A stretch of 33,785 bases of DNA from Candidatus Parcubacteria bacterium (GTDB lineage: Bacteria > Patescibacteriota > Patescibacteriia > UBA1558 > GWA2-36-10). Both the position numbers and the translations under genes were made by a program. A model generated the notes under the pieces. It was not told the DNA's origin. It ran no database searches and worked only from the letters and a program-made list of their open reading frames with translations. Position 1 is the first letter of the stretch. Each line of letters begins with the position of its first letter. The stretch lies in NCBI GenBank assembly GCA_003599205.1, contig QZJA01000006.1, positions 1 through 33,785 on the forward strand, written 5' to 3'. Shown piece by piece: positions 4,598 to 27,685 of this stretch.

Positions 4598-4643
4598 TAT
4601 ATAAACATTTTGTTTTAAATTGTTAAAATCTTTCGCAGAAATT

Positions 4644-5855: not shown

Positions 5856-5858
5856 AAT

Positions 5859-7142
5859 ATGACGGCTGATAAAGGTATCAATTTAATGCCCGAAGACCTA
5901 AGGTCTAAGGAAGACGAAGCTCTGGCAAAAAAGAGGAGTGTTTTTGATCTTGATTTAGTAACGCCAAATTTGACTCCAGGGCAGGCAACAGGTAAACCAA
6001 CTGGCGGTCAAGAATCTTTTTGGTCAAAATTTTTGGCTATTTTTAAGCCAAAAGTAAAAGAGCCAAAGATCAAGGAAAATAAGGTCAAAGATAATGATGG
6101 TTCTATTTTAGCCAGAGAAATAAAGAGAAACAAAGATACCCATAAAGAAGTAGAAGTAGTAGAGCACAAAATAGCTCAGCCGCAAACACCAGCAATAAAT
6201 CTGGCCAAAGCAAAAAACGGCAATGGCTCTATCTTGGCCAGAGAAATAAAGAGAAATGGCTATGATAAATTGCCGGAAACAAAACCAGAACTACCAAAGA
6301 TTGAGGAAAAGCAAATAAAAAATGATTTTTTCATTCCTGAAGAGCCAAAGCTACAGGTGATGTCTCAGCCGAAACCAGAACCAGAAGTACCACAGCCAGA
6401 GAAGAAAGACAAAGAGAAAAAAGAAGAAAAAAAGAAGGCCAAAAAACCCGAAAAAGATCAGGATAAAAATTTAGGCTTTCATGAACCAGAAGCTCGTGTA
6501 AAATCAAAATTCATGAGTGAAGGTGGGGGCGTTGATTTGATTCCGACTTCAGTCAAGGTTAGGAGTTGGCGTCAGATCAGTAATTTGATTTTGTTATCTT
6601 TGATTGGTTCGGTGGTGATAGTAGGTATATTTTATGGTTCTTTGTTTATACAAGAGAGGAATATCAAGGCCAACCAAGCCAATCGTGATCGTCAAATATC
6701 TGATCTGGAGGTTGAAATATTAAAATTTGAAGCATTCAACCAGACGATTGATGTTTTGGGCAAAAATATAAAAATGACTCATGAGGCCTTAAACAAGCAT
6801 ATACACTGGATAAATTTCTTTGAGCTTTTGGAAAAGTATACGGTGTCTGATGTTTACTACCATGGTTTTGCTGCCGGCAATGATGGGGCTTTGACGCTCA
6901 GTGCTACTGGCGGATCATATGATTCCGTGGCTAAACAGCTCAAACTTTTACAGCAAGATGAGGCCAAAGAATTTGTTCAATCAGTTGCTATATCTGGTGC
7001 TCAGATGGGTGGTAGCGGAGTTGAATTTAGTATGGTTTTGGTCTTAAATCCGGATATATTTTATTACCAGGAAGATATTTTGGGAAATGACAATCAGGAC
7101 AATGATGATGATCAAGGGGATGACCAAGGTCAAAGGAACTAA
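5859..7142 (+). CDS. PilN-like bitopic pilus assembly protein with a long Lys/Glu-rich N-terminal extension and an acidic tail
   Basis: Lies directly after pilM. Single TM segment ILLSLIGSVVIVGIFYGSLFI followed by a coiled-coil-like segment (QISDLEVEILKFEAFNQ), which is the PilN architecture. About 230 aa of low-complexity sequence precede the TM segment. Confidence 0.6.
   Translation: MTADKGINLMPEDLRSKEDEALAKKRSVFDLDLVTPNLTPGQATGKPTGGQESFWSKFLAIFKPKVKEPKIKENKVKDNDGSILAREIKRNKDTHKEVEVVEHKIAQPQTPAINLAKAKNGNGSILAREIKRNGYDKLPETKPELPKIEEKQIKNDFFIPEEPKLQVMSQPKPEPEVPQPEKKDKEKKEEKKKAKKPEKDQDKNLGFHEPEARVKSKFMSEGGGVDLIPTSVKVRSWRQISNLILLSLIGSVVIVGIFYGSLFIQERNIKANQANRDRQISDLEVEILKFEAFNQTIDVLGKNIKMTHEALNKHIHWINFFELLEKYTVSDVYYHGFAAGNDGALTLSATGGSYDSVAKQLKLLQQDEAKEFVQSVAISGAQMGGSGVEFSMVLVLNPDIFYYQEDILGNDNQDNDDDQGDDQGQRN
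6099..6257 (+). repeat. Two copies of a 33-nt direct repeat (6099-6131 and 6225-6257, 29/33 identical) inside the PilN-like gene
   Basis: ggttctattttagccagagaaataaagagaaac versus ggctctatcttggccagagaaataaagagaaat. Both encode GSILAREIKRN. Confidence 0.85.
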
Positions 7143-7154
7143 TTTTTTATAAGA

Positions 7155-7850
7155 ATGACCAAAGATAAAGAAATAAAATTTGAACAGCCATCAGAAATAT
7201 TGATCATAGTCAATCGCTATGTGATGATTATTATGGCGGTGATTATATTGGGTATTTTGGCTTTGGGTTATTTTTTCTTATTATCACCAAAGATAGCTAG
7301 TATCAAAGTTATAGAACAAGAAACTACCGATATTGAGCAAAGGAGAATATTAAACGAAAATTTATTGACCAAGATAAAGCAGCTTCAGTTCGAGTATGAT
7401 GGTTTAATTGAAGACCGTGAAGGTCAACTGTCAAAGTTACTCAAAGTCATACCGGATGAACCACAACTAGCAGAATTGTTTGTTTTGACAGAAAGGCTAG
7501 CCAAGCAAAGAGGTTTTGAATTGCAATCAATAAATATTTCTGAAGGAAGCACTTCTTCTGGTTCGGTTAATCCCGATGGCAGTAGTGCTGTTGTGTCAGA
7601 AGAAGGTCTTAAATCTTTGGTTATACACGCCAATATAGCTTATGGTTCTGAAGCTGTAGAGGGTGACAAAAAACAATCTTCAGACGAAGAGGAAGTCAAA
7701 ACTCCTTACCAGATTTTCAAGCAGTACTTGGTTGATTTGGAAAATAATTTACGTTTGATGGATGTCCAAGCAGTTAGCTTTGGTTCACTTGATCCTACTT
7801 TGGAGGGAGCAGTAAGCTTTAGTTTTGATATTATTACTTATTATAAATAA
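7155..7850 (+). CDS. PilO-like bitopic pilus assembly protein
   Basis: Third gene of the pilM-N-O order. N-terminal TM segment VMIIMAVIILGILALGYFFLL followed by a coiled-coil region. Assignment rests on position and architecture only. Confidence 0.55.
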   Translation: MTKDKEIKFEQPSEILIIVNRYVMIIMAVIILGILALGYFFLLSPKIASIKVIEQETTDIEQRRILNENLLTKIKQLQFEYDGLIEDREGQLSKLLKVIPDEPQLAELFVLTERLAKQRGFELQSINISEGSTSSGSVNPDGSSAVVSEEGLKSLVIHANIAYGSEAVEGDKKQSSDEEEVKTPYQIFKQYLVDLENNLRLMDVQAVSFGSLDPTLEGAVSFSFDIITYYK

Positions 7851-7852
7851 TT

Positions 7853-8212
7853 ATGGCTAGTCACGATAGTAAAAAAACTTTGTATATACTATTTGCCGTT
7901 CTAGGAGTTGTCATTATCGGTGGCGGTATTTGGTTTTTCCAATTTATGAAGCCTGTAGAAACATTGACTTTTGATGTTGAGGGTGACGCTCAAGTAAGTA
8001 AAGTTTACGCCATCAAACAGCTGGCGGCCAAAAATGTCATTGATTTTATGGGTTCTAAGACCTCGCAGGCGACCATATTGGATCAGGTTTATAATGACCC
8101 CCAGTATCAGGCTTTAAAGGATTTTGAAGTTGTGATTGATATCAAAGAAGGTATTGGTAATGAAGAGCCATTTGCCCCGATAGTTTTAGAGGATGTTTCA
8201 GAAGAAGAATAA
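7853..8212 (+). CDS. Small membrane-anchored protein in the pilus operon, function unknown
   Basis: TM segment LYILFAVLGVVIIGGGIWFF and an acidic C-terminus. Tightly packed between the pilO-like gene and pilB. Confidence 0.6.
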   Translation: MASHDSKKTLYILFAVLGVVIIGGGIWFFQFMKPVETLTFDVEGDAQVSKVYAIKQLAAKNVIDFMGSKTSQATILDQVYNDPQYQALKDFEVVIDIKEGIGNEEPFAPIVLEDVSEEE

Positions 8213-8226
8213 AAATTTAGTTGTTT

Positions 8227-9963
8227 ATGACACCAGAGGAAACAAAAAAACTTTTTGATTATATCAGAGAGCAAAATTTTATAAATGACGACCAATATCA
8301 GGAACTCATGCAGCAAAAATTTTCTTCTTTTGCTGAAATGGAAAAATATCTGCGTCGTGTTGCTTTGCTTTCCGGAGAAGATTGGACCCAGGCTAAGGGT
8401 GTTTTTTATGGTGTGGAATATGCCAATTTGATTGGCAGAAATATAGATTCTGAAGTTTTAAATGTTTTGCCACAGAGCTTGTCAGAAAATTATCAAATGG
8501 TAGTTTTCAACAAAGAAGGTGGCAATTTGGAAGCTGGACTAGTAGATCCAACCAACTTCAAAGCTATTGAAGCGCTTAATTTTTTGGCGCGTAAGAAAGA
8601 GTATAAGGTCAAATATTATATAATATCCGAAGAGAGCTACCGTGCCGCTGCCAAGCAGTATGAAACCTTGGGTGAAGAGGTAGGTGAAGCTTTGGATACG
8701 GCCGAAGCTATTTTTGCTCCCAAAGAGGATATTTATGATGCTGATGAAGATGTTGAAGACGTTGTCAAAAGCGCTCCAGTATCAAAAATAGTTTCAGTTG
8801 TATTGCGCCACGCTATTGAGGGGCGAGCTTCAGATATTCATATTGAGCCGGTTGGCAATCAAAGCAAAGTGCGTTATAGGATTGATGGTGTTCTTCATAC
8901 AACCATTGTTTTGCCGATTTATGTGCATTCCGCTTTGGTATCAAAGATAAAAGTTATGGCCAACCTGAAGATTGATGAAACTAGGATTCCTCAAGATGGC
9001 CGTATTAGAATGAAAATTCACAACAAAGATGTTGACTTCCGTATATCTACTTTGCCGCTCATGGGTCAAGAAAAAGTAGTTATGCGTATTTTGGAAACTC
9101 CAGAAAAGGCTCCGAGTTTTGGCGATTTGGGCTTTATGGGTTTACAGCTCAAGGTAGTAGAGGAAAACATTTACAAGCCGAACGGTTTGTTTCTCCTTAC
9201 TGGTCCGACTGGTTCAGGAAAATCAACTACTTTGTTTGCCGCTTTGAATTATTTGAATAAAGAAGAAGTAAATATAGCCACTCTGGAAGATCCAGTAGAG
9301 TATTATATCCCCGGTGTTAATCAGTCTCAGATTAGACCAGAAGTAAACTATACTTTTGCCAGCGGTCTAAGAGCTTTGCTTCGTCAGGATCCAGACATCA
9401 TCATGGTCGGTGAGATTCGTGACAATGAAACAGCTGAGTTGGCTATCCATGCCGGCTTAACTGGACACTCAGTCTTGACGACTCTTCATACCAATAGTGG
9501 TATGGGAGCCATTCCTCGGTTGTTTGATATGCAAGTGGAGCCATTTCTCCTAGCTTCTACTTTAAATGCTGTTATTGCTCAACGTTTGGTGAGGAAGATA
9601 TGCCCCAAATGTAAAGTAGAAGAAAAATTACCTTCAGAGGTAATTAAACATGCCAAGGAAGTGTTGGACAGCATACCAAAGGAAGCTCTTTATCCAAATG
9701 TAGACAGCAACAACATGAAATTTTATCGCGGTCAGGGTTGTGCCAATTGCGGCCAGACAGGGTACAAAGGGCGTTTGGCTATTGTCGAAGCTATCAATGT
9801 CACCCGAGGTTTGCAAGATATAGTAGCTAGAGGATTTGCTCGTGCTGAAGCAGAAGAAGAGCTTAGGAAACAATTTTTTACCAACATGGAACAAGACGGC
9901 ATTGAAAAAGTCGTTTTGGGTATGACCACCATGGAGGAAGTCATGAGAGTAAGTAAAGCTTAA
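8227..9963 (+). CDS. pilB: Type IV pilus extension ATPase PilB (GspE family)
   Basis: Canonical Walker A LTGPTGSGKSTTL, Walker B LLRQDPDIIMVGEIRD, His box TGHSVLTTLHTN, and the tetracysteine motif CPKCK...CANCGQTGYKGR. The ORF track starts at TTG 8221; ATG 8227 is preferred. Confidence 0.93.
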   Translation: MTPEETKKLFDYIREQNFINDDQYQELMQQKFSSFAEMEKYLRRVALLSGEDWTQAKGVFYGVEYANLIGRNIDSEVLNVLPQSLSENYQMVVFNKEGGNLEAGLVDPTNFKAIEALNFLARKKEYKVKYYIISEESYRAAAKQYETLGEEVGEALDTAEAIFAPKEDIYDADEDVEDVVKSAPVSKIVSVVLRHAIEGRASDIHIEPVGNQSKVRYRIDGVLHTTIVLPIYVHSALVSKIKVMANLKIDETRIPQDGRIRMKIHNKDVDFRISTLPLMGQEKVVMRILETPEKAPSFGDLGFMGLQLKVVEENIYKPNGLFLLTGPTGSGKSTTLFAALNYLNKEEVNIATLEDPVEYYIPGVNQSQIRPEVNYTFASGLRALLRQDPDIIMVGEIRDNETAELAIHAGLTGHSVLTTLHTNSGMGAIPRLFDMQVEPFLLASTLNAVIAQRLVRKICPKCKVEEKLPSEVIKHAKEVLDSIPKEALYPNVDSNNMKFYRGQGCANCGQTGYKGRLAIVEAINVTRGLQDIVARGFARAEAEEELRKQFFTNMEQDGIEKVVLGMTTMEEVMRVSKA

Positions 9964-9974
9964 CCAAAAATATT

Positions 9975-10367
9975 ATGCCAGAAAGAAAAGTATTAGTTGT
10001 AGAAGATGATGATTTTTTGTTGGAGATGTACAGCACCAAACTTGAGCTGGAAGGCTTTAAAGTATACAACGCTACCAGTGGTATGCAAGGCTTAAAAGTC
10101 GCTCAAAGAGAGCTACCAGATTTAATACTTTTGGATTTGAATCTGCCTGAGATGAGCGGTTTTGAGGTTCTGGAGCATCTAAAAAATGGAGACACTACTA
10201 AAGATATATCGGTAGTTGTCTTGACCAACTATTCACAAAAAGATCATATTGATCGTTGTCTTGATTTGGGAGCTGATGATTATTTGATCAAGGCTCATTT
10301 TGTACCTTCAGAGGTTATCAGCAAGATAAAAAAAATATTAGACGAAAAAGAAACGCAAAATAAATAG
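9975..10367 (+). CDS. Single-domain response regulator (CheY-like receiver only)
   Basis: VLVVEDDD acidic pocket, phospho-acceptor context LILLDLNLPEMSG, VVVLTN, and YLIKA (conserved Lys). There is no output domain. Confidence 0.88.
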   Translation: MPERKVLVVEDDDFLLEMYSTKLELEGFKVYNATSGMQGLKVAQRELPDLILLDLNLPEMSGFEVLEHLKNGDTTKDISVVVLTNYSQKDHIDRCLDLGADDYLIKAHFVPSEVISKIKKILDEKETQNK

Positions 10368-10371
10368 TTTC

Positions 10372-11436
10372 ATGCCAGATACTTTACTTATAAATAATAT
10401 TTTAAATATTGCCTCAGAGAGGAAAGCAACCGATGTTCATCTGATTGCTGGCAATAGTCCTGTCATTAGAGTTGATGGGCGTCTTGTTACTTTGACTGAA
10501 GAGAAAGTTTTGACACCGAGTTCGCTCAATAGCGTAGCGGAAATTATCTTGACCAAAGAGGACATTGAGCGTTTGGGTCAGGAAAGGGAGGTTTCTACTA
10601 TTTATTCCTGGAACAATCGCGCTCGTTTTAGAATCAAGGCTTTTTACCAAAAAGGCTTTATTGCTATTTCCATGCGTTTGATTCCGGCTTATATCCGCTC
10701 ACCCAAAGATTTGGGCATTCCTCAAGCAATTATTCAGCTGTTAAACAGGGAAAAAGGTCTATTGATAATTACTGGTCCCTTTGGCAGTGGCCGGACAACG
10801 ACAGTAGCTTCACTTTTGGAAACATTGAATCAAAACAAAGGTGTCCATATCCAGACTTTGGAAAAACCAATTGAGTATTTATTTGCCAATAACCAATCAG
10901 TTATTGAGCAGAGAGAAATTGGCAAAGACGTAGCAGATTTTTCTCAGGGCATTGCTGATGTAATAGATGAAGATATTGATGTAGTTTATATTTCAACGGT
11001 TCATGAGTTTGGTATAGAAGAAAAAATATTGGAATTGGCAGAAAGTGGCAAATTGGTGATTATAGTAATGGATGCCGATTCGGTAATTTCTGCTATTGAG
11101 AGATTTATCAGCGATCTGCCTCAAGAAAAAAGAGAGTGGGGGCATGATCTTTTAGCCGATGTATTGCTCGGTGCTTTGGGCCAGCGTTTACTGCCTAGGA
11201 TAGGTGGAGGATTTTCTTTGGCTTGTGAAGTTTTGACTAGTATCCCAGCAGTCAAATCCAGCATCAGAGAGGACAAACTTCATCAGTTGAGCAGTATTAT
11301 GCAGACTTCAAAGGATGAGGGCATGATTGATTTGGATAAAGCTCTCTTGGCCAAGATAAGAGCCGGTGAGGTCAGCCCCGAAGATGCTATGAATCAAGCG
11401 CTTGATCCGCAAATATTTAAACAGAATTTTAGTTAA
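10372..11436 (+). CDS. pilT: PilT-family hexameric ATPase homolog with degenerate catalytic motifs
   Basis: PilT-like N-terminus ATDVHLIAGNSPVIRVDGRL, IEQREI, and AVKSSIREDKL (AIRNLIRE-like). However, Walker A is GPFGSGRTT (Lys to Arg, CGG at 10792-10794), the Asp box is LEKPIEY, Walker B reads DIDVVYISTVHE and the His box reads SGKLVIIVMDAD. Confidence 0.8.
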   Translation: MPDTLLINNILNIASERKATDVHLIAGNSPVIRVDGRLVTLTEEKVLTPSSLNSVAEIILTKEDIERLGQEREVSTIYSWNNRARFRIKAFYQKGFIAISMRLIPAYIRSPKDLGIPQAIIQLLNREKGLLIITGPFGSGRTTTVASLLETLNQNKGVHIQTLEKPIEYLFANNQSVIEQREIGKDVADFSQGIADVIDEDIDVVYISTVHEFGIEEKILELAESGKLVIIVMDADSVISAIERFISDLPQEKREWGHDLLADVLLGALGQRLLPRIGGGFSLACEVLTSIPAVKSSIREDKLHQLSSIMQTSKDEGMIDLDKALLAKIRAGEVSPEDAMNQALDPQIFKQNFS

Positions 11437-11438
11437 TT

Positions 11439-12647
11439 ATGGCTGTCTATAAATATCGATCCAGAAATAATGACGGTCGGATAACCGTCGGTGTAGTAGA
11501 AGCTAGCAATCAAAGTGAAGCGGCTGAATTGTTGATGGACAAAGGTCTAATAGTTTTGTCTTTGGCCGAAACAAGTGCCAAATCAAAAACGGGACTCAAT
11601 ATAAATATTGGTCGAATAAAGCATAAAGATATAGTTATATTTTCTCGTCAGCTTTCGGTCATGATTTCCGCTACTGTGCCGATAGTGCAATCACTCAAGA
11701 TATTGGCGCAGCAGACAGTTAATCCTATTTTTATAGAAAAAATTATTGAAATAGCCAACGATGTTGATGGCGGTATGAAGCTGTCTGATGCTTTGGGCAA
11801 GCACAAAAAAGTTTTTAGTCATTTTTATGTAGCTATGGTCAGATCCGGCGAGACTTCTGGTCGTTTGGATGAGGTCTTGGAATATTTGGCTGATCAGATG
11901 GAAAAGGATTATGATTTGGTCTCTCGTATCAAGGGAGCGATGATTTATCCGATATTTATTATTGGTGGTATGATAGCGGTCGGTGCTCTAATGATGGTTT
12001 TTGTGGTGCCCAAGATGACCCAGATGCTCAAAGATACTGGCACTGAGCTGCCACTTTTGACCAGGATACTGATAGGTACTTCAGATTTTATTCAGAGCAA
12101 CGCAATACTTCTCTCTTTGACATTAATAATTTTGATAGTTTTGACCAAAGTGTGGGTCAGCTCAACGGCTGGTAAGGTTGCTTGGGATTCAGTCAAAATA
12201 AACATTCCTATATTTGGTACTTTATTTAAAAAAATATACATTGTCCGTTTTACCAGGAGCTTATCCACTTTGATTAGAGGTGGTGTGCCAATTGCCGTAG
12301 CTTTGCGTATTACTGGTGAGGTTGTGGATAACCGAGCTTATGAAAAATTGATTATGGATACAGTCGCTGAAGTAGAGGGAGGTAATTCTATTGCTACTTT
12401 GTTTGTCAAGTCTGATTTGGTGCCAAAGATGCTTTCACAGATGATAGTTATTGGTGAGCGCACTGGCAAATTGGACACTGTTTTGGAAAGATTGAGCGAT
12501 TTTTACAGCCGAGAAATAGACAATTTGGTCCAGGGCCTGACATCTTTGATTGAGCCTTTGATACTTATCATCATGGGTGTCGGTGTCGGCGGTATGGTAG
12601 CGGCTATTATGTTGCCAATGTTTAAGGTAGCCCAGAGCATATCCTAA
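11439..12647 (+). CDS. pilC: Type IV pilus platform protein PilC (GspF family)
   Basis: 402 aa with two GspF-type repeats, three TM segments and the typical N-terminus MAVYKYRSRNNDGRITVGVVEA. Confidence 0.92.
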   Translation: MAVYKYRSRNNDGRITVGVVEASNQSEAAELLMDKGLIVLSLAETSAKSKTGLNINIGRIKHKDIVIFSRQLSVMISATVPIVQSLKILAQQTVNPIFIEKIIEIANDVDGGMKLSDALGKHKKVFSHFYVAMVRSGETSGRLDEVLEYLADQMEKDYDLVSRIKGAMIYPIFIIGGMIAVGALMMVFVVPKMTQMLKDTGTELPLLTRILIGTSDFIQSNAILLSLTLIILIVLTKVWVSSTAGKVAWDSVKINIPIFGTLFKKIYIVRFTRSLSTLIRGGVPIAVALRITGEVVDNRAYEKLIMDTVAEVEGGNSIATLFVKSDLVPKMLSQMIVIGERTGKLDTVLERLSDFYSREIDNLVQGLTSLIEPLILIIMGVGVGGMVAAIMLPMFKVAQSIS

Positions 12648-12652
12648 AATTA

Positions 12653-12681
12653 TTGTTGCTTTTTAAAAAAAGTGCTATAAT
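12653..12681 (+). promoter_or_regulatory. Candidate promoter of the major pilin gene: TTGTTG, 17 nt, TGcTATAAT
   Basis: TATAAT at 12676-12681 is preceded by TGc, with TTGTTG at 12653-12658. A second TATAAT lies at 12687-12692. This implies a ~115-nt leader. Confidence 0.4.
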
Positions 12682-12808
12682 AATTGTATAATTAAATAAT
12701 TTTTAAACATTAACATCCTTAGCGCTCATCTTAATAAAGTTAGAACTTTAGGGATTCCGAGCTTTAACTTTTATTAATTTGAGCACTAGTATGAAGGGAG
12801 GTGAAACA

Positions 12809-13234
12809 ATGAGACAAAAAGGATTTACTTTAGTTGAGTTGTTAGTCGTTATCGCTATTATTGGTATTTTATCAACAGTAGCAATCGTCAATTTAAACAG
12901 TGCTCGTGACAAGGCCAAATTTGCGTCAGCTCAATCTGCTATGTCACAAATGGCCACTCCAATGATTCTGTGTATGGATGAAGAAGTGGGTGGTGGTACG
13001 GTTACTTGGCTCGCTAATGGTCCTGTAGCAAACCAAGAACCATGTGATGCGACTGCCGTTGATGGGTCTGAATTTCCAGATCTAGGAACCGGTTGGTCTT
13101 ATAGTGCCACTGGAGCGTATTGGGGGCATGACTATGATACTTATGAATGGCATTTCTGTGCTGTAAGTACTAGTGGAGACGATATTGATTGTACCCAAGA
13201 TGGTTGTTCAGCAACATCAACTTGTCCAGTATAG
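12809..13234 (+). CDS. Major type IV pilin (type IVa-like short leader)
   Basis: MRQKG/FTLVELLVVIAIIGIL class III signal with Glu+5. A strong SD, AAGGGAGGTG, lies 6 nt upstream of ATG 12809. The listed TTG 12779 start would translate through this SD. It has its own promoter and terminator and six Cys in the globular domain. Confidence 0.88.
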   Translation: MRQKGFTLVELLVVIAIIGILSTVAIVNLNSARDKAKFASAQSAMSQMATPMILCMDEEVGGGTVTWLANGPVANQEPCDATAVDGSEFPDLGTGWSYSATGAYWGHDYDTYEWHFCAVSTSGDDIDCTQDGCSATSTCPV

Positions 13235-13273
13235 TAACAATTTAGTAAAAAATTTAATTTAGAAAACAAAAGG

Positions 13274-13300
13274 TCTCTCTTTTATAAAGAGGGATTTTTT
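13274..13300 (+). terminator. Rho-independent terminator after the pilin gene
   Basis: A 9-bp stem (13274-13282 with 13286-13294, including one G-U pair), a 3-nt loop, then TTTTTT at 13295-13300. Confidence 0.7.
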
Positions 13301-13341
13301 GTTTTGTTGGGATTTATGCTATAATAAAGACAAGTTTTTAT

Positions 13342-13776
13342 ATGTTTAAGGCATACAGCGTAAAAGTAAAAGTAATATTTATTGTTGTCATAGTTTTGGC
13401 CATTGTTTTGCTAATTGTGTTCAACAATTACAACAAAGGCAAGGCTAGGGATTTACAAATGGTTATTCAGGCAAAATCATTAGCTATTTCTCTGGAAGAA
13501 TATTATGACAAGTTCAATGCTTATCCAGCTACTGCTAGTGTTTCTTTGGATAGTATTTATACTGTTACTCAAGCGGGACTTAATCAAAATGAAGGCGTTA
13601 TTTATTTTAAGCGGGATTTTGAGTGGGCTAGGCCAGGTAAATATTTGAGTGATGGCAGAAATTATGCGATTGATTTTGATCTGGATTATGGTTGGTCAGT
13701 CTGGGGTCTAGACAGGGACGGTGGTAAGTGCCGAGTTTCTACCAATGTAACTATGGCCTGTATAGCTGATAATTAG
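13342..13776 (+). CDS. Pilin-like membrane protein lacking a prepilin cleavage motif
   Basis: N-terminal hydrophobic helix VIFIVVIVLAIVLLIVF followed by NKGKARDLQMVIQAKSLAISLEEYY. This resembles the post-helix region of the pilin (NSARDKAKFASAQSA), but there is no G/F-x-x-x-E site. Confidence 0.6.
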   Translation: MFKAYSVKVKVIFIVVIVLAIVLLIVFNNYNKGKARDLQMVIQAKSLAISLEEYYDKFNAYPATASVSLDSIYTVTQAGLNQNEGVIYFKRDFEWARPGKYLSDGRNYAIDFDLDYGWSVWGLDRDGGKCRVSTNVTMACIADN

Positions 13777-13817
13777 ATATATTATTTTTCGAACAATTAT
13801 GTTATAATAAAACTACT

Positions 13818-14597
13818 ATGATAGTAGTTTTTGTTTTAATTTTTGGCTTATTTATTGGTAGCTTCCTCAACGTGGTTATTTATCGTTTGCATCGCGAGGA
13901 ATCTTTTGTTAAAGGCAGTTCCAAGTGCCTTTTTTGCGGGCATAGACTGTACCCAAAGGATTTAATTCCTTTATTTAGCTATGTATTTTTGAGAGGGCAC
14001 TGCCGTTATTGTCAGCAGAGGTTTTCCTCGCAATATCCTTTGGTAGAAGCCACCACAGCTTTGGCTTTTATTTTAATTTTTATAAATATTTTTCCTCAAG
14101 ATAGCTGGAATTACGCGCAGATAACGGATTATTTTAAATTGTTATCTTGGTGGACAATGGCTTCTTTTCTAATTATTATTTTTGTTTACGATTTGAGATA
14201 TTATTTGATTTTAGACAAAGTAATATTGCCGGCGATTATTTTTTCTTTTTTTGCCAATCTGGTGCTTGGTCATAATTGGTGGCAGATGCTGTTGGCCGGA
14301 GTTGTCGGTGGCGGTTTCTTTTTGTTGCAGTATGTTTTGTCAAAGGGTCGTTGGATCGGAGGAGGCGATATCCGCCTAGGGGCACTGATGGGTATAATTT
14401 TGTCTTGGCCCCATGTTTTGACGGCATTATTTATTGCTTATATTTTAGGTAGTATAATTAGCGTAATTTTGCTTTTGGGTAGCAAGAAAGCTTGGGGAGA
14501 TAAAGTTCCTTTTGGTACTTTTTTGTCCTTAGCTACTTTTGTTACTTTATTGTATCATCAGGAGTTAACAAATTGGTATTTTTCTTTATTTAGTTAA
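13818..14597 (+). CDS. pilD: Prepilin peptidase PilD (A24 aspartic peptidase)
   Basis: N-terminal CLFCGHRL...CRYCQQRF cysteine pairs. Multiple TM segments carry the two catalytic Asp contexts VYDLRYY and GGGDIRLG. Confidence 0.9.
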   Translation: MIVVFVLIFGLFIGSFLNVVIYRLHREESFVKGSSKCLFCGHRLYPKDLIPLFSYVFLRGHCRYCQQRFSSQYPLVEATTALAFILIFINIFPQDSWNYAQITDYFKLLSWWTMASFLIIIFVYDLRYYLILDKVILPAIIFSFFANLVLGHNWWQMLLAGVVGGGFFLLQYVLSKGRWIGGGDIRLGALMGIILSWPHVLTALFIAYILGSIISVILLLGSKKAWGDKVPFGTFLSLATFVTLLYHQELTNWYFSLFS

Positions 14598-14610
14598 TAA
14601 ATAAAATATT

Positions 14611-15264
14611 ATGAGAAAAATTTTTAAGAATCGAGCAGGGTTCTCTTTCATTGAGCTGATCATAGCCGTGGCTATCATCATCATTATTTCTTCTGTATTT
14701 ATAGTCAATGTCCGACTCAATACGCAAGAAGATGTTCGCACTAGTACTGAAAAATTGGCAGCTGATATAAGGTATATAAGAAATTTGGCTGTTTCGCGAG
14801 CTGAGTATCAGTTTGCCGATCAGACCGCTGATCAAAAAACCTATCCAGCTGGTGGTTATGGTATATTTTTTTATGGTAGTCTGGCTAGGGACAAGTATTT
14901 TATTTTTGCCGATGATGGCACTACTATTGGTTACCAAGCAGATTCAGACGAAATTTTATATGAAGTGGAAGTTTATCCTTTGTTGCTTGATGATCAAAAT
15001 GGTCCTTTGACTGATTTTTGGTTTACTTTCATCAGTGAAAATCAAGTCGTGAGTTCTATGGGTTTGGCCGCCGATAAGAAATACATGGTTAACTTGAGAG
15101 AAAATATCGGCACTTGGGGTACCGGCTATCAGGGTAGTTTGGTGCTGGGTGAAGTCTCTAGTGATGGTTATGTTTGGAGCAATATTGGCACTTCTTATAG
15201 CACTTTCAGTATTGCCAAACCGGCGCCACTACCAAAAGATCCAGAAGAAGCCATGGAAATTTAA
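14611..15264 (+). CDS. Minor pilin / pseudopilin with class III signal
   Basis: MRKIFKNRAG/FSFIELIIAVAIIIII. Confidence 0.8.
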   Translation: MRKIFKNRAGFSFIELIIAVAIIIIISSVFIVNVRLNTQEDVRTSTEKLAADIRYIRNLAVSRAEYQFADQTADQKTYPAGGYGIFFYGSLARDKYFIFADDGTTIGYQADSDEILYEVEVYPLLLDDQNGPLTDFWFTFISENQVVSSMGLAADKKYMVNLRENIGTWGTGYQGSLVLGEVSSDGYVWSNIGTSYSTFSIAKPAPLPKDPEEAMEI

Positions 15265-15899
15265 TGTCCGAAAAAAATATAAACAAAAATCAAGGTTTTA
15301 CTTTGATAGAACTGTTGATTGCAATAGCGGTATTTACCTTAGGCATAATGGGTGCCTTTACTTTGGCTTTGGCTAATATCAATACTATCAGGGAAAATTT
15401 TAATAGAGTTTTGGCAGCTAATATTTCCCGCGAGGGAGTGGAAATAGTCAGAAATATGCGGGATAGCAATTGGTTGAGAGAAGAGGCTAATGAATATTGT
15501 GGCGCTTATATTTGTTCTTGGTCTGATGGTTTAACGGCCGGTTTTTATTATGCTGATTATAATGATGCGGCTTTAAATCCTTTTGTTTGCTCAGATCTTG
15601 ATGCTTGTATTTCCAGCTGTACTAATTCCGGCATTTGCTCCCTTTATTTGAATAGTAATGTCTATGATCATACTATTGGTCCCAACAAAAGTAACATGTC
15701 TCGGATTATTCAGATAGAAAATATTTGTATTGTTGATGCTAGTGGTGCTCCAGTAGAGGATATTAGAACTTCAAGCTGTGATAAATCTGCTGGCGAGATT
15801 GATGCTGGCATCAGAGTGACTTCTAGAGTGCGCTGGTCCGGTAGAGACAAAAATATTGACATTGATTCGTCAGAGCTTATTTATAATTGGCGCAGATGA
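15264..15899 (+). CDS. Minor pilin with class III signal
   Basis: MSEKNINKNQG/FTLIELLIAIAVFTLG. Its ATG overlaps the upstream TAA by 1 nt (TAATG). Confidence 0.8.
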   Translation: MSEKNINKNQGFTLIELLIAIAVFTLGIMGAFTLALANINTIRENFNRVLAANISREGVEIVRNMRDSNWLREEANEYCGAYICSWSDGLTAGFYYADYNDAALNPFVCSDLDACISSCTNSGICSLYLNSNVYDHTIGPNKSNMSRIIQIENICIVDASGAPVEDIRTSSCDKSAGEIDAGIRVTSRVRWSGRDKNIDIDSSELIYNWRR

Positions 15900-16540
15900 T
15901 GGATAAAAAAAACAACCAAGGCTTTACTCTGCTAGAACTTCTGATTACAGTCGGTATTTTTTCTATGACGGTTTTGATGGTGGCCGGTATCTATGTAGCT
16001 TTTTCAAAAAATCAAGCTCGAGCCAAGGCAGCTCAGACTTTGCTTAATAATTCCCAATATACTTTGGAAATAATTTCTCGAGAAATAAAAAATAATGAAA
16101 TTTTTGATTATAACCCCAATAATTCTGGTGGCCTTTGCGGGGCAGTGAGTTGCTGTAATTATTATATTGGTCCAGATTATGAAAGCTGTATCTTGCTACA
16201 AAAGCCTGATGGGCAATTAGTCGCTTTTGTGGCTGATTTGAGCCTGGATCAACAAAAAGTATTTTATGTTGTTCCACCAGGAGATTCTTATGCTCAGTCT
16301 CCATGGGAGTCAGTGGAAGAGGCTTACACTAAATTATTAGCTCCGGAGTTAAATGATGTAGTAGTTGAAAGTTTGGATTTTTATTTTTCTCCTGATACCG
16401 ATCCTTTTGTGGTTGGTGGTCCAAATTTACAGCCCAAGGTGACTATCAACATGAATACGGTCTATGATACCGAGCAAATCATCGCCCAAGTGTCATATCG
16501 TCTTCAGACAACAATTTCATCTCGTATATATAAGCGTTAG
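15896..16540 (+). CDS. Minor pilin with class III signal
   Basis: MMDKKNNQG/FTLLELLITVGIFSM. ATG 15896 forms an ATGA overlap with the upstream TGA stop (15897-15899). The listed TTG 15887 is less likely. Confidence 0.8.
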   Translation: MMDKKNNQGFTLLELLITVGIFSMTVLMVAGIYVAFSKNQARAKAAQTLLNNSQYTLEIISREIKNNEIFDYNPNNSGGLCGAVSCCNYYIGPDYESCILLQKPDGQLVAFVADLSLDQQKVFYVVPPGDSYAQSPWESVEEAYTKLLAPELNDVVVESLDFYFSPDTDPFVVGGPNLQPKVTINMNTVYDTEQIIAQVSYRLQTTISSRIYKR

Positions 16541-16544
16541 ATTT

Positions 16545-17414
16545 ATGGAAAAATTTTTCCACAAGGTTAAAGAAAAAGATCAAAATGGCATGATTTTAGT
16601 TATGGCCATTATGATTTTGTCTATTGTGCTTACTTCTGTTTTAGCTTTGAGTCAGATAATTATGGGTGAGCTCAAGATGTCTTTAAACGCTGGTAATTCA
16701 ATTTTGGCTTTTTATTCAGCTGAAAGTGGTATAGAAAAAGGTTTGTATTATATAAAATATTCTCGAGAAAATAGTGATTTTAGTGATTTTATAAAATTGT
16801 CATACACTACGTCTTATAATGTAGATGATTTGGGAAATAAAAAATTTGTTATTTCAACATCCACTATTCTTGGCGGAGTGACGGATTTTTATGGTGTTAG
16901 TACTACTTCACCAGCCTATTTGGATATCATGGATCCGGCCGGAGCAGTTGGTATTATTGATTGGTCTGCTAGCGTTGGCTTGCCTAGTTATACTCAGATT
17001 TTTTGGGAAATAGAAAATTGTTTTCCTCTGCATGCTTCAGACAAGCTTGAGGTTACTATCAATTCTTTTGCCCAGGAATTTTCTGATCCCAAAACAGAGA
17101 CTAGGATAGCTATCTGTAATTGTGGTTATGGTGACGATGATTGTGATATTAGCTCTTATAGCAATATCAGTCCCAATAGGTATTATCATTTTTCTTTTAG
17201 GCCGCTGGATAGTGAAATAAAAGAATTGAATTTTAGAATGAGAAATGCCGCTAATGCTGAATTGAAAATAATGTCATCTGCCTTGATTGAAGCTTATGGT
17301 GAATACAGCAATTCACGCTATCGTCTTCAGGCAACAGTACCGACCTTAAATCCTGTTTCTGATGTTTTTAGTTATGTCTTATTTTCGGAAGAGGATTTGA
17401 CTAAAGGCTTATAA
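16545..17414 (+). CDS. PilX-like minor pilus protein (N-terminal anchor, no cleavage motif)
   Basis: MEKFFHKVKEKDQNGMILVMAIMILSIVLTSVLAL followed by AFYSAESGIEKGLYY, resembling the PilX N-terminal pattern. The listed start at 16464 overlaps the previous gene by 77 nt; ATG 16545 lies 5 nt after its stop. Confidence 0.65.
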   Translation: MEKFFHKVKEKDQNGMILVMAIMILSIVLTSVLALSQIIMGELKMSLNAGNSILAFYSAESGIEKGLYYIKYSRENSDFSDFIKLSYTTSYNVDDLGNKKFVISTSTILGGVTDFYGVSTTSPAYLDIMDPAGAVGIIDWSASVGLPSYTQIFWEIENCFPLHASDKLEVTINSFAQEFSDPKTETRIAICNCGYGDDDCDISSYSNISPNRYYHFSFRPLDSEIKELNFRMRNAANAELKIMSSALIEAYGEYSNSRYRLQATVPTLNPVSDVFSYVLFSEEDLTKGL

Positions 17415-22549: not shown

Positions 22550-23356
22550 ATGAATTTATTCTGGCAAAATTATATACCACAGCCCATTATATTTTCTTTA
22601 GGGCCGATTTCAGTCCGTTGGTATGGATTGATTTTAGTGGCAGCGATAGTAGCTGCTGGGTTATTGATAGGTAGATATTTACTCAAAAAATCAATTTTGA
22701 ATAAAGATCAGCTGGAAGATTTTTTATTTTATACAGTTATTTTAAGTTTGATTGGTGCTCGTTTTGGCCATGTGGTATTTTTCAATTTAGACTATTATTT
22801 GAAATATCCAGCGGAGATAATCCAAGTTTGGAATGGCGGTTTGTCTATCCAAGGAGGAGTTTTGTTTGGTTTGTTGACAGTTATCTTTTGGGCCAAGAAG
22901 CACAAAATTAGTTTTTGGAGATTGGCTGATGTTATTGTACCGGGTTTAGCCTTGGGCCAGGCGATTGGTCGGTGGGGCAATTATTTCAACCAAGAGCTTT
23001 TTGGTCGGCCAGTTAGTTGGGGTATTCCTATAAATTTTGCCAACCGGGAATTTCCTTATTTTAAAGAAGAATATTTTCATCCAACTTTTTTTTATGAATC
23101 AGTTTTGAATTTTTTATTGTTTATGGTTTTATATCTACTGCTAAAAGCCGGTAAGCTTAAAACCGGCCTAATAGCTATGATTTATTTGTTATCATATTCA
23201 GTGATCAGATTTTTTATGGAGTTTGTCAGGATAGATTTTACCCCAACAGTTTGGGGCCTGAGGATGCCTCAATTTATCAGTGTCTTGGTAGTAATGGCAG
23301 TTTTGGTTTATATATTTGCCTTTTACCTAAAACCCTTGCCAAAATCGAAAAAATAG
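22550..23356 (+). CDS. lgt: Prolipoprotein diacylglyceryl transferase
   Basis: ISVRWYGLILVAA, GARFGHV, IGRWGNYFNQELFGRP. Confidence 0.93.
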   Translation: MNLFWQNYIPQPIIFSLGPISVRWYGLILVAAIVAAGLLIGRYLLKKSILNKDQLEDFLFYTVILSLIGARFGHVVFFNLDYYLKYPAEIIQVWNGGLSIQGGVLFGLLTVIFWAKKHKISFWRLADVIVPGLALGQAIGRWGNYFNQELFGRPVSWGIPINFANREFPYFKEEYFHPTFFYESVLNFLLFMVLYLLLKAGKLKTGLIAMIYLLSYSVIRFFMEFVRIDFTPTVWGLRMPQFISVLVVMAVLVYIFAFYLKPLPKSKK

Positions 23357-23364
23357 GGTATTAT
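23336..23364 (+). promoter_or_regulatory. Sigma70-like promoter TTGCCA, 17 nt, TATTAT upstream of the tRNA-Asp nest
   Basis: TTGCCA at 23336-23341 and TATTAT at 23359-23364. The predicted start lies ~10 nt before the outer tRNA 5' fragment at 23381. Confidence 0.55.
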
Positions 23365-23380
23365 ATTCATGTTTTAATTA

Positions 23381-23729
23381 GGGGTGGTAGTTCCCCGCTA
23401 GGCGGGGCCCCGCCATAGGCGGTGGCAGCCCTAGTTATTTATTGGCCATTGATTTCATTTTGAAGTTTGATGAAATCTTATGAGAACGCCTGCCTGTCAT
23501 CCCACTACGCGCTGCGCGCTTCGCGGGACACAGCGCAGGAATTATTGTATGTCTGCCTGTGCTGGGGTGGTAGTTCAGCTGGTTAGAACGCCTGCCTGTC
23601 ACGCAGGAGGTCGAGGGTTCGAGTCCCTTCCATCCCGCCACAGGCAGACATAAATTAGAGGGTTCGCTTGTCCGCCAAAGTCCTGAGTTTCAGTGAAGGA
23701 CGACGGCGGAAGTCCCTTCCATCCCGCCA
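23381..23729 (+). other. Loop-expanded outer copy of tRNA-Asp: five colinear exact fragments enclosing the intact tRNA
   Basis: Exact matches to the intact tRNA: nt 1-13 at 23381-23393; nt 22-38 at 23483-23499; nt 39-45 at 23534-23540; nt 50-58 at 23658-23666; nt 59-77 at 23711-23729. All four helices are kept and all interruptions fall in loops. Confidence 0.6.
23564..23640 (+). tRNA. tRNA-Asp (anticodon GUC), 77 nt, CCA encoded
   Basis: Acceptor GGGGTGG/CCATCCC, D-stem GTTC/GAAC, anticodon stem CCTGC/GCAGG with loop CTGTCAC, T-arm GAGGG-TTCGAGT-CCCTT, discriminator G and a terminal CCA. Confidence 0.93.
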
Positions 23730-23734
23730 CTATT

Positions 23735-23759
23735 TAGCCTTTTTGTTTAGGCTATTTTT
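23735..23759 (+). terminator. Rho-independent terminator after the tRNA nest
   Basis: TAGCCT (23735-23740) pairs with AGGCTA (23749-23754), followed by TTTTT. Confidence 0.55.
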
Positions 23760-23771
23760 GTTGTTTTATTT

Positions 23772-23800
23772 TTGACAATTATAAGCCATTATGGTATTAT
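23772..23800 (+). promoter_or_regulatory. Near-consensus promoter TTGACA, 17 nt, TATTAT
   Basis: TTGACA at 23772-23777 and TATTAT at 23795-23800. Confidence 0.6.
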
Positions 23801-23828
23801 AAAGTAGCTTATTAAGGATAATCTTTAG

Positions 23829-24044
23829 CTGATAAACTATAAAAATAATATAAAAAAAGATACAAAAAATAAATTTATAGCTGGCGAGTCTAAGTATTGT
23901 CAAAGTTGTGGACAAGAATCACATAATCTCTTTGAGGTTACTTGCAATGTTCAAAAAATAAATCAATTACGTTATTGTGATAAGTGTAAAGGAAGCTATA
24001 AAATAAAGGAAAAAACAGTTAATAGTAGTATTTTACTTAAGTAA
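23829..24044 (+). CDS. Candidate small zinc-ribbon protein with no canonical start codon (71 codons open)
   Basis: The open frame encodes ...KYCQSCGQESHNLFEVTCNVQKINQLRYCDKCKGSYKIKEKTV... It contains no in-frame ATG, GTG or TTG. CTG 23829 lies 10 nt after AAGGA (23814-23818). The unit is bracketed by a strong promoter and a weak terminator. Confidence 0.3.
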   Translation: MINYKNNIKKDTKNKFIAGESKYCQSCGQESHNLFEVTCNVQKINQLRYCDKCKGSYKIKEKTVNSSILLK

Positions 24045-24081
24045 GCATTCTTATAATTTTATTGCTTAATATTAATTATCC

Positions 24082-24107
24082 CACCTTATATTAATAGGGT
24101 GTTTTTT
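24082..24107 (+). terminator. Weak terminator-like hairpin plus T-run
   Basis: CACCT (24082-24086) pairs with GGGTG (24097-24101), with a 10-nt loop, followed by TTTTTT. Confidence 0.3.
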
Positions 24108-24439: not shown

Positions 24440-24613
24440 TTAGAATTTTCGGTCTCTTTTTGGTGGTCTTTTTTTACGATAGCAGTCCCGACAGAAAATT
24501 GGTCGGTCACCATCTGGCTCAAAAGGTAGTTGGGTGATTTCAACACCGCATTCAGAACATTCCCAGTGACCTTCTACCATTGGTCTTTGACCAAAGTCTT
24601 TTTGATTGTCCAT
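24440..24613 (-). CDS. Small zinc-ribbon protein (57 aa), absent from the ORF track
   Basis: My reverse-strand translation is MDNQKDFGQRPMVEGHWECSECGVEITQLPFEPDGDRPIFCRDCYRKKRPPKRDRKF. It has CxxC-x17-CxxC and a basic tail, starts with ATG, and the bidirectional terminator lies downstream. Confidence 0.7.
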   Translation of the reverse strand: MDNQKDFGQRPMVEGHWECSECGVEITQLPFEPDGDRPIFCRDCYRKKRPPKRDRKF

Positions 24614-26851: not shown

Positions 26852-27228
26852 TGGTGGAGATGAGGGGTATTACACCCCTGTCTGACAAATTGCCTAATAC
26901 AGCTCTACAAGTTTAGTCAATTTTGTGTTTCAGCCGAAGACTATAAAATTAACAAAAAATCATCGGCCAAGTTGGTGATGGTTTTGAAATATCCAGCCCA
27001 ACAATGGATATTTCTAGCCTAGTGAATGACGTCTCAAATTGATCCTAGGCTATCAAAGGGAGACGGTCGTAGCATTTTTAAGCTACAACTGGGTAAAGCT
27101 GCGGGACCTTGAAAAGATCCTTGGCTTTAGCAATGAAGTTTTTTGCACTTATTGCAGGAGATGTTTAATGAGATCACTCTCAACTTGCAATATATTATTT
27201 CACTTGCCGTCGAATAAGTTACATCCCC
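26852..27228 (-). ncRNA. ssrA: tmRNA (ssrA), ~377 nt
   Basis: The minus strand starts GGGGATGTAACTTATTCGACGG and ends AGGGGTGTAATACCCCTCATCTCCACCA. The acceptor GGGGATG/CATCTCC includes a G3-U pair. The tag ORF GCA AAA AAC ... GTA GCT TAA is preceded by AAUAAGU. It starts 5 nt downstream of the smpB stop. Confidence 0.88.
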
Positions 27229-27232
27229 AAGT

Positions 27233-27685
27233 TTAAAAATTCTTGAGTTTGCGCGAAATATTGCGCTCAATGTCTCTTTTTTTGATGGTTTCTCTTTTGT
27301 CAAATTTCTTTTTACCCTTAACCAAGGCAATCTTTACCTTGATCAACCTTCGCGTAGTATACACTGAAATAGGTACAATTGTCAAGCCTTTTTCGTTGGT
27401 TTTGCTGGATAAATAGGCGATTTGACGCTTAGCCAGCAAAAGTTTGCGATCACGATCAGGATTATAATTTTTCAAACTTTGTAGGGAAGCTTTAGAATAG
27501 GTCGGGATGTGCATTTTTTTGAGCCAAGCTTCACCTCTTTTTAGTGAAACAAAAGCTCCCTTAAGGCTGATATGGTGGGTTTTGATTGACTTTACTTCTT
27601 GGCCAGTCAATACCAAGCCAGCCTCGAGTTCTTCGACAACTTTATAGTCAAGATTAATTTGTTTGTTTCGTGCAATTTCCGCCAT
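27233..27685 (-). CDS. smpB: SsrA-binding protein SmpB
   Basis: NKQINLDYKVVEELEAGLVLTGQEVKSIK... plus a basic C-terminal tail. Confidence 0.95.
   Translation of the reverse strand: MAEIARNKQINLDYKVVEELEAGLVLTGQEVKSIKTHHISLKGAFVSLKRGEAWLKKMHIPTYSKASLQSLKNYNPDRDRKLLLAKRQIAYLSSKTNEKGLTIVPISVYTTRRLIKVKIALVKGKKKFDKRETIKKRDIERNISRKLKNF

Follow-up and report, generated by a model that had tools for sequence, protein, structure and literature searches.

Disrupted transfer RNA (tRNA) genes of archaea, e.g., those of Thermoproteales and Nanoarchaeum, carry multiple introns with bulge–helix–bulge (BHB) motifs or are split or permuted (reviewed in PMC3978253). A tRNA-Asp(GUC) locus on contig QZJA01000006.1 of Candidatus Parcubacteria bacterium, a bacterium of the candidate phyla radiation (CPR), resembles such genes: it is interrupted at canonical position 37/38 and in other loops, an insert is predicted to pair with the anticodon, and the colinear pieces refold to a cloverleaf. 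The contig stretch analyzed here (assembly GCA_003599205.1, positions 1 to 33,785) is referred to below as the window. Unlike the archaeal genes, the locus has a bacterial host, shows no BHB motif, and its pieces do not sum to a complete tRNA; one “intron” is an entire second copy of the tRNA, and the inner gene, not splicing, would provide the function. The reading that we favor, which we hold to have about an even chance of being right as a whole, is that one precursor is made, from which the inner tRNA is released out of a selected leader–trailer helix; the outer copy would be a non-decoding but structure-retaining remnant which has collected loop-seeking palindromes, and the nested form would be old and repeatedly lost.

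Several other systems share parts of this picture. Like the partial tRNA direct repeats that integrative elements leave at attachment (att) sites, the locus has breaks at the anticodon loop and at the T and variable loops, and the same tRNA is a hot spot of integration and replacement in the relatives; unlike them, it has gene-free inserts of 34-117 nt, repeats on both sides (hence the nesting), covarying flanks of the inner gene, and deep conservation. The leader–trailer stems of rRNA operons, which are RNase III substrates, similarly consist of flanks forming a long covarying helix that encloses the mature RNA, but here a single tRNA is enclosed, the helix runs into C75-A76 coaxially with the acceptor stem, and cleavage is a prediction. 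Yeast mitochondria harbor GC clusters, mobile GC-rich palindromes of an AT-rich genome (PMC4478555), and in Neurospora mitochondria GC-rich palindromes flank tRNA genes (Yin, Heckman and RajBhandary 1981, as cited in PMC4478555). The locus shares with these the short GC hairpins in an AT-rich genome, a dispersed family with a shared 5' motif, nesting or merging, and association with tRNA; it differs in that the hairpins are few in the DNA examined, have no known transposase and lie inside a tRNA pseudocopy, not beside genes, and their apparent preference for hairpin loops comes from a handful of cases. In bacteria, mobile GC-rich palindromes are represented by the REP and RPE elements. Finally, tRNA scaffolds and tRNA-like modules include engineered tRNA scaffolds, mascRNA and the bacterial YrlA Y-RNA-like RNAs; as in these, a tRNA-shaped frame with tRNA-like paired ends and a CCA terminus bears other RNA on one arm, but the cargo is a genuine tRNA placed on the variable arm. 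Rfam returned no YrlA match, and its mascRNA match (17.9 bits; gathering score 42.5) covers the inner tRNA only. No account of this architecture turned up in literature searches covering CPR tRNA introns or insertions, nested or duplicated tRNAs, bacterial BHB motifs, and palindromes within tRNA genes.

Organization of the Nested Locus

The initial annotation, made by a model from the sequence, placed an intact tRNA-Asp inside a loop-expanded second copy of itself, within one promoter-to-terminator unit, and this anatomy was reproduced in full. Both ARAGORN and Rfam (RF00005, 70.3 bits; gathering score 29) recognize one tRNA-Asp(GUC) only, at 23564-23640, whose canonical cloverleaf qualifies it as a functional bacterial tRNA. 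Script recomputation returned the same five exact colinear fragments of this tRNA around it, covering 65 of its 77 nt, and the same insert sizes (89, 34, 117 and 44 nt at the D loop, 37/38, the variable region and 57/58, respectively). Four of the five fragments are unique within the 33.8-kb window, and the remaining 7-mer has one extra match, on the opposite strand; the colinear chain of 65 nt compares with at most 26 nt in 2000 flank shuffles and 15 nt elsewhere in the window. In the outer copy, each of the four helices retains both its strands, the breaks falling only in loops or in the variable region, as had been claimed. A consensus scan also found the proposed promoter and the terminator after the outer CCA, with none between them. 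The features of the unit are as follows.

23336-23364, + strand: sigma-70-type promoter TTGCCA-17-TATTAT (consensus scan, 10/12 matches)
23381-23393, + strand: outer nt 1-13, i.e., acceptor 5' strand, U8, A9 and D-stem 5' strand (exact match)
23394-23482, + strand: 89-nt insert replacing the D loop, nt 14-21 being lost (fold, GC-island scan)
23483-23499, + strand: outer nt 22-38, i.e., D-stem 3' strand, anticodon-stem 5' strand and anticodon loop to A37 (exact match)
23500-23533, + strand: insert i1 at canonical 37/38, 34 nt; hairpin UCCC...GGGA, then C-ACAG
23534-23540, + strand: outer nt 39-45, i.e., C38, anticodon-stem 3' strand and A44 (exact match)
between 23540 and 23658, + strand: 117 nt replacing outer nt 46-49 (variable region), intact tRNA included (script)
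23541-23547, + strand: AT-rich linker (register table, pair counts)
23548-23559, + strand: leader strand s1 of the putative processing helix (register table, pair counts)
23560-23563, + strand: 4-nt spacer TGCT, its TG pairing with C75-A76 of the inner tRNA
23564-23640, + strand: intact inner tRNA-Asp(GUC), CCA encoded (ARAGORN; Rfam, 70.3 bits)
23641-23652, + strand: trailer strand s2, immediately after A76 (register table, pair counts), followed by a linker AATTA to 23657
23658-23666, + strand: outer nt 50-58, i.e., T-stem 5' strand and first four T-loop bases (exact match)
23667-23710, + strand: insert i2 at canonical 57/58, 44 nt; cttg-TCCGCC-AAAG-[hairpin GTCCT...AGGAC]-GGCGGA
23711-23729, + strand: outer nt 59-77, i.e., rest of the T loop, T-stem 3' strand, acceptor 3' strand and GCCA (exact match)
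23735-23764, + strand: intrinsic terminator TAGCC...GGCTA with T run, closing the unit (consensus scan, 23735-23754)

The promoter reaches into the 3' end of lgt, and its position implies a leader of ~10 nt ahead of the outer G1; the same promoter block cccttgccaaaa...tagtgtattata precedes the tRNA-Asp locus in all relatives. The minimum free energy (MFE) fold of 23372-23759 is a nested double cloverleaf (-166 kcal/mol, z = -6.8), in which the outer segment 23381-23393 pairs with 23717-23723.

Nested Form in Related Parcubacteria

Orthologous loci, cited below by their handles (L001 and so on), were obtained from genomes of GTDB and from metagenome assemblies with Lgt as the anchor. The nested architecture was found in four more Parcubacteria lineages with Lgt 47-79% identical to that of the window, namely L001 (78%), L202-L208 (79%), L222 (62%) and L007 (47%), all within a small group of ultra-small bacteria. 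L202-L208 are seven contigs from at least six different samples, identical save one gap, and L209 (Lgt 76%) has a contig break inside the repeated 5' segment, which is consistent with the nested architecture. The nesting is due neither to chance nor to an assembly artefact, the latter being rejected because there are independent assemblies and lineage-specific variants; an independent assembly bearing the window's own Lgt was looked for, and none is on record.

All nested loci share one layout. The 5' half comprises the outer part to A37, a hairpin at 37/38 ending in C-RCRG, CGCAG and an AT-rich linker; the middle is made up of the leader strand, the 4-nt spacer TGNN, the intact tRNA and the trailer strand right after A76; the 3' half consists of a linker, a GC hairpin, the outer 3' part through its final GCCA, and the terminator. 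The position of this second GC hairpin varies: L007 and L202 have it in the variable loop and keep the T arm intact, L001 and the window have it at 57/58 of the T loop, and in L222 it separates the T stem from the acceptor strand. All five nested lineages (5/5) retain the acceptor stem and its GCCA, the D stem, and the anticodon stem together with i1. The nested double cloverleaf is also the MFE structure in L001 and L222, and it lies at most 1-2 kcal/mol above the MFE in L202 and L007.

Other relatives carry a plain tRNA-Asp: L201, the closest relative (Lgt 84%), whose tRNA is identical to the inner tRNA at 77/77 nt, as well as L211, L221 and L006, the last being ~87-91% identical in flanking DNA to the nested L007. 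Relic forms were found, too. In L223, the tRNA and a terminator are followed by a 3' fragment studded with hairpins, behind which a further terminator lies; L003 shows a hairpin-bearing 5' fragment ahead of the tRNA; and L005 (8966-9470) contains a decayed nested form at a different locus. L215-L219 have an inverted tRNA-Asp that stands alone behind a promoter of its own. As the TGCT spacer, 7 bp of the helix and a GC-TTTTTTT tail are still attached to it, it descends from the inner unit and works without a shell.

A pattern scan of metagenomes for the i1 junction (CTGCCTGTCAN{10,40}CRCAGCGCAG) gave 120 matches, all of them random and none followed by a second tRNA copy, and similarity searches against phages and plasmids yielded ordinary tRNA-Asp matches only.

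A separate observation concerns L004 (6812-7130), where a tRNA-Asp of Komeilibacteria lies within an imperfect leader–trailer duplex of ~40 bp; it has no outer shell, only a downstream CTGCCTGTC fragment.

The Leader–Trailer Helix

The two flanks of the inner tRNA form a helix that is kept in one fixed register in an ungapped alignment of the five lineages: U-4 pairs with A76, G-3 with C75, and each position -5-k with +1+k. The helix is 14-18 bp long across the nested lineages; in the window it has 14 Watson–Crick pairs, i.e., 12 between s1 and s2 plus U-A76 and G-C75. In this alignment, 99.5% of the cells are paired, a value reached in 0/500 shuffles, and controls slid out of register are 39-51% paired. 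Compensatory changes are abundant: 17 pairs are altered on both sides, and all 14 variable helix pairs are among them. In L222, the helix has an unrelated sequence and an identical register. Among 75 tRNAs of the fetched loci, such a helix is unique to this tRNA-Asp family. The leader–trailer helix is under selection, and as a covarying helix of the flanks it resembles leader–trailer processing stems. The search for covariation among orthologs that the initial annotation had proposed gave a strong signal in the stem which bears the inner tRNA.

In the fold of the window, the helix and the acceptor stem stack into a duplex of ~22 bp with one C/C mismatch. We infer from this model that the helix closes off the inner tRNA so that it folds as a domain of its own, and that it provides a site for processing. 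Of the hypotheses offered by the initial annotation, that of a tRNA-shaped scaffold presenting the inner tRNA therefore holds part of the truth, in that a selected helix does present it.

The favored reading can be spelled out on these grounds. The locus would be a single transcription unit with the inner tRNA-Asp as its sole decoding product, located at the tip of a 14-18-bp helix rising from the variable region of an interrupted second copy. As an independent folding domain, the helix would shield the inner cloverleaf from the identical outer strands, and the near-continuous duplex of ~22 bp is the likely entry site for endonucleolytic release, either by an RNase III-type cut or by RNase P at G1, or by both, with 3' trimming to the encoded CCA as the next step. 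The outer copy, with a paired anticodon and, in the window, neither D loop nor variable loop, would be non-decoding and would be tolerated because the inner copy provides the function; in this way, it may have turned into a landing pad for small GC-rich palindromes preferring hairpin loops. The nested architecture would be old in the clade, with concerted evolution keeping the outer copy identical to the inner one, and would have been lost repeatedly, plausibly via recombination between the direct repeats.

The Outer Copy

The outer copy is complete (77 nt) only in L007. In the window, its pieces joined make 65 nt, without D-loop nt 14-21 and variable nt 46-49, so that a one-base variable loop is left; nt 44-50 are missing in L001 and the 5' strand of the T stem in L222, and L202 carries G19C and C32U. 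Its anticodon is predicted to be masked, because the C-ACAG end of i1 pairs with C32-U33-G34-U35 of the outer copy. Insert i1 has an identical position and design in 5/5 nested lineages, with 96.9% of the alignment cells paired; three pairs of its helix are changed on both sides, and three more changes are U-A/U-G switches, which argue that the pairing acts in the sense-strand RNA. G-U outnumbers A-C in the predicted helices by 24 to 3, a count that is biased by the folding algorithm and gives weak support.

The tRNA itself differs between the lineages at pair 6:67 (G-C or C-G), pair 27:43, a T-stem pair of L007 and D-loop position 17. Within a locus, the outer copy shows zero differences from its own inner copy over 65-81 nt in the window, L007 and L222; in L001, one position at a fragment edge is not retained, and L202 shows two differences, both in loops. 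Gene conversion between close direct repeats would be the simplest cause of this identity.

Several observations weigh against the favored reading. Outer fragments of 7-13 nt are free of substitutions relative to the inner copy, even though the tRNA varies between lineages. Such short tracts seem too short for gene conversion, and the poor fit therefore points to very recent insertions or to selection on the fragments. Next, the plain gene of the closest relative L201 shows that the shell and the helix are both dispensable. Nested and relic forms occur scattered among plain ones across a rough Lgt tree, down to 47% identity, a pattern that could reflect old inheritance followed by repeated losses, or else horizontal spread. 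The nested form should be deleted easily through its direct repeats of 30-38 nt, and its persistence suggests that the shell itself is favored. Finally, a U run follows s2 in L001, L202 and L222, and many transcripts of these loci may therefore end before the outer 3' part.

Some of these points would be accommodated if the outer shell were itself a selected RNA, with its halves held together by the acceptor stem and s1/s2 after excision of the inner tRNA, i.e., a stable tRNA-shaped, non-decoding molecule resembling a class II tRNA in its long variable arm and clamped by GC hairpins. It might act as a folding or processing chaperone, a protected store of precursor, or a decoy for tRNA-binding enzymes, toxins or integrases. 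This reading is favored by persistence of the shell over deep divergence despite its being easily deleted, by the presence of its acceptor stem with GCCA, D stem and anticodon stem with i1 in all five lineages, by outer fragments that have received insertions and essentially no substitutions, and by the tRNA-like pairing of the 5' and 3' ends of the primary transcript; the i1 hairpin covaries, and at the T-loop site common to the window and L001 the i2 stems are, by eye, different. However, the shell is dispensable in L201, L006, L211, L221 and L215; its erosion is lineage-specific (the T-stem 5' strand in L222, the D loop in the window and G19 in L202, as G19C); no shell-specific covariation is demonstrable apart from the inner copy; and palindromes like some of its inserts occur at non-tRNA sites as well. 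On balance, we consider a selected shell a serious candidate that is nevertheless unlikely.

GC-Rich Hairpins and Palindrome Families

The inserts of the outer copy consist largely of GC-rich hairpins. The 89-nt D-loop insert of the window contains the GC hairpins CCCCGC-tag-GCGGGG and CCCCGCC-ata-GGCGGTGG and an AT hairpin at 23451-23477, and i2 is a hairpin nested in another hairpin. The D-loop insert is specific to the window lineage: the outer D arm is intact in L001, L202 and L007, and D-region hairpins occur only in the window, L222 and L003, the latter two having different ones. Even so, parts recur between loci, and the inserts include members of two dispersed palindrome families, CCTG + GC stem and CCGCC-AWA-GGCGG. 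CCGCC-AWA-GGCGG of the window D-region insert is found again in the D arm of L222, whose TCCGCCAAAGGCGGA hairpin equals the two ends of the window i2, which has an extra hairpin in its loop. The i2 site equals that of CCTG-CCCCGTA...TACGGGG in L001, and i2 fits the relaxed pattern used for the “CCTG + GC stem” family.

The “CCTG + GC stem” family extends beyond the nested loci. The pattern “CCTG + CCCSS...SSGGG” gave 14 hits in 655 kb of CPR loci, as compared with 0-3 (~1.2) in 20 shuffles; some of the GC hairpins thus belong to dispersed imperfect palindromes with a shared consensus, a feature of REP-like or MITE-like (miniature inverted-repeat transposable element) repeats. Non-tRNA intergenic copies lie in L022 at 3428-3469 (+) and at 5570-5599 in (-) strand coordinates (within 6764-7004 of the + strand) and in L060 at 406-426; one L022 copy (with a terminator-like stem) and the L060 copy are situated in the loop of another hairpin. 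A further copy, recognized by eye, in L042 (9618-9652) is flanked by a 14-nt direct repeat (tatcttgtttcttg). Moreover, in other Patescibacteria, partial self-copies with loops or whole arms replaced by GC hairpins were observed next to the intact gene, i.e., in the L005 locus mentioned above and beside tRNA-Leu in L009 (1660-1830, -), tRNA-Met in L052 (8620-8790) and another tRNA-Asp in L070 (6957-7165), where CCA is encoded only in the downstream fragment.

Collectively, these sequences suggest small palindromic elements that prefer hairpin loops and are tolerated in a tRNA copy only beside an intact copy. Such an insertion preference can account for the loops-only pattern without selection on the outer helices. 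The initial annotation had argued that random decay would not spare every helix. The conserved architecture and the covarying stem uphold its view that more than decay is involved; since the CCTG + GC family also occupies non-tRNA hairpin loops, the loops-only pattern is weakened as proof of selection on the helices.

A bolder combination of these observations appears improbable to us, though it deserves mention: a selected device, in which a GC-clamped shell escorts, stores or controls the release of tRNA-Asp and survives as a two-piece RNA, and/or an undescribed class of CPR palindromic elements that builds nested RNA genes stepwise. Such elements would insert specifically into the hairpin loops of structured-RNA genes and terminators, duplicating the target locally.

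Three other descriptions of the inserts were tried and rejected. Within the window, the non-coding GC islands occur only in the tRNA locus; REP-like elements across the whole window were rejected, as the GC hairpins are confined to that locus. The right insert is not a reverse complement of the left one, no likeness being visible by eye beyond s1/s2. A model of terminal inverted repeats with target-site duplication for the s1–tRNA–s2 segment was unconvincing, with only a 4-nt GCAG duplication (L007, L202) and a weak AAGTA repeat.

Recombination at This tRNA

The locus is also a site of recombination in the relatives. In one strain of a relative (P0005 in JGI sample 3300072015), genes for a tyrosine integrase (Phage_integrase) and Rep_O (Phage_rep_O) directly follow lgt–tRNA-Asp and look like an integrated element at the tRNA; the other strains of this relative have the plain locus. 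The strains L223 and L224 (2410-3100) do not differ in Lgt or in any sequence up to the CCA of tRNA-Asp; they then continue with different cassettes of ~100 nt and different downstream open reading frames (ORFs) and are again ~99% identical further downstream, which marks a strain-level replacement hot spot. In L007, a 660-nt insert (2712-3372) adjoining the nested tRNA and absent from L006 carries genes for 117-aa and 87-aa proteins, a pair that by eye looks like a HicB/HicA-type toxin–antitoxin module. Several contigs end inside tRNA-Asp. Direct repeats of a tRNA segment, as expected of att sites, are present: L007 and L202 both carry nt 1-38 and 48-77 in duplicate around the inserts, and the corresponding repeats of the window are more broken up.

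Thus, the partial tRNA copies may have arisen by site-specific recombination. Taken further, the whole shell could be a neutral scar, in which a 5' part displaced by a crossover in the anticodon loop and a 3' part displaced by one in the variable or T loop surround a reconstituted gene; the scars would have been left by integrative elements or by duplication-generating insertions, with remnants shrunk to 34-117 nt, and only the inner tRNA would matter. The integrase and Rep_O genes, the cassette exchange at the CCA, the contigs ending inside the tRNA and the 3'-only or 5'-only relics in L223, L070, L009, L003 and L052 all agree with such an origin. So do the breakpoints in the anticodon and T loops, which match the sublocations that tRNA-targeting integrases reportedly use (Williams 2002). 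Still, site-specific recombination leaves the complementary, covarying flanks of the inner gene unexplained, i.e., their fixed register and the 14/14 compensatory positions in five lineages, as well as the conserved helix predicted to mask the anticodon. It would also require two events of opposite polarity, and no integrase or cargo lies between the repeats of any nested locus, the inserts of 34-117 nt being without ORFs. Viral contigs with the 3' part of the tRNA, searched for an attP-bearing element, contained ordinary phage tRNA-Asp genes only, with neither the fragments nor the helix. Neutral scarring as the full account is therefore improbable in our view, and the recombination scars proposed by the initial annotation capture just a part of what happened at this hot spot.

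Splicing of the Outer Copy

Another idea of the initial annotation, a multi-intron pre-tRNA, takes the four inserts as introns, one of them bearing a tRNA, whose removal would yield a second mature tRNA-Asp. An insert does lie exactly at 37/38, with a 3' end that could pair with the anticodon as in archaeal and eukaryal pre-tRNAs, and all 77 outer nucleotides are still present in L007. At the junction, however, the anticodon stem is extended by C32-U35 paired with RCRG, C38 is bulged, and C36-A37 face a single C; the central 4-bp helix, which resembles an archaeal intron structure, thus has a 1-nt bulge on one side and a 2x1 internal loop on the other, in place of two 3-nt bulges. No BHB motif is therefore present at 37/38, nor at the other inserts, which have no exon–exon helix. 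The outer copy does not provide the complete tRNA of a BHB or split tRNA gene, the exons being incomplete in the window, L001 and L222 and altered in L202 (G19C, C32U). No ribozyme, intron, YrlA, group I core or other family beyond the tRNA was matched in Rfam at gathering or permissive thresholds (E up to 5), and the 34-nt insert at 37/38 falls short of the ≥ ~200 nt and the P1-P9 core of a group I intron. Neither EndA nor RtcB is encoded within the 33.8-kb window, and the host is a bacterium with tmRNA and SmpB. With nucleotides missing, the anticodon paired, and no BHB motif, ribozyme or intron core, the outer copy of the window cannot be spliced into a tRNA, and the multi-intron hypothesis is rejected as very improbable and contradicted by the sequence.

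Genomic Setting

The window has the look of a compact, bacterial CPR genome with a GC content of ~37%, and its Lgt is 100% identical to a database entry for Candidatus Parcubacteria bacterium. On the + strand, a type IV pilus operon is followed by ligA, gatC, gatA, a DsbA-like gene and lgt, and then by the tRNA locus; downstream of it are DUF378 and VanZ-like genes, rplT-rpmI-infC on the - strand, the gene of transfer-messenger RNA (tmRNA), and smpB. The pilus cluster (4620-17414) is complete, with PilM, PilB, a response regulator, a PilT-like ATPase, PilC, several pilins, a prepilin peptidase and a PilX-like protein. The tmRNA is full-length (26852-27228, -; 128 bits in Rfam), was missed by ARAGORN and directly adjoins smpB (27233-27685, -).

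Two small reading frames lie downstream of the tRNA locus. One (in the unit 23772-24101, +) is Cys-rich (...YCQSCGQESHNLFEVTCNVQKINQLRYCDKCKGSYK...) and has no ATG, GTG or TTG start, for which reason the ORF list did not include it; it is bracketed by a strong promoter TTGACA-17-TATTAT with TG and a terminator at 24082-24101, and is also kept in L201 (3520-3735). The other (24440-24613, -) is a 57-aa zinc-ribbon ORF (CSECG...CRDC), whose counterpart in the relatives is annotated as PF23477 zf_Tbcl_2.

Implications for tRNA Biology of CPR Bacteria

For annotation purposes, only the inner gene should be called at this locus, and the outer fragments should not be regarded as pseudogenes of separate origin. 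The nested structure explains the odd behavior of tRNA finders and assemblers here, including the several contigs that break inside the tRNA. It further suggests that CPR genomes contain a family of GC palindromes that seek out loops.

If the description holds, the locus is a bacterial addition to the short list of unconventional tRNA genes, which comprises intron-containing, split and permuted ones. In it, disruption would be solved without splicing: an intact copy sits within the disrupted one and would be released from a conserved stem. As such, it offers a testable substrate for studying how tRNAs mature in CPR bacteria, in which the machinery of RNA processing is reduced and poorly understood.

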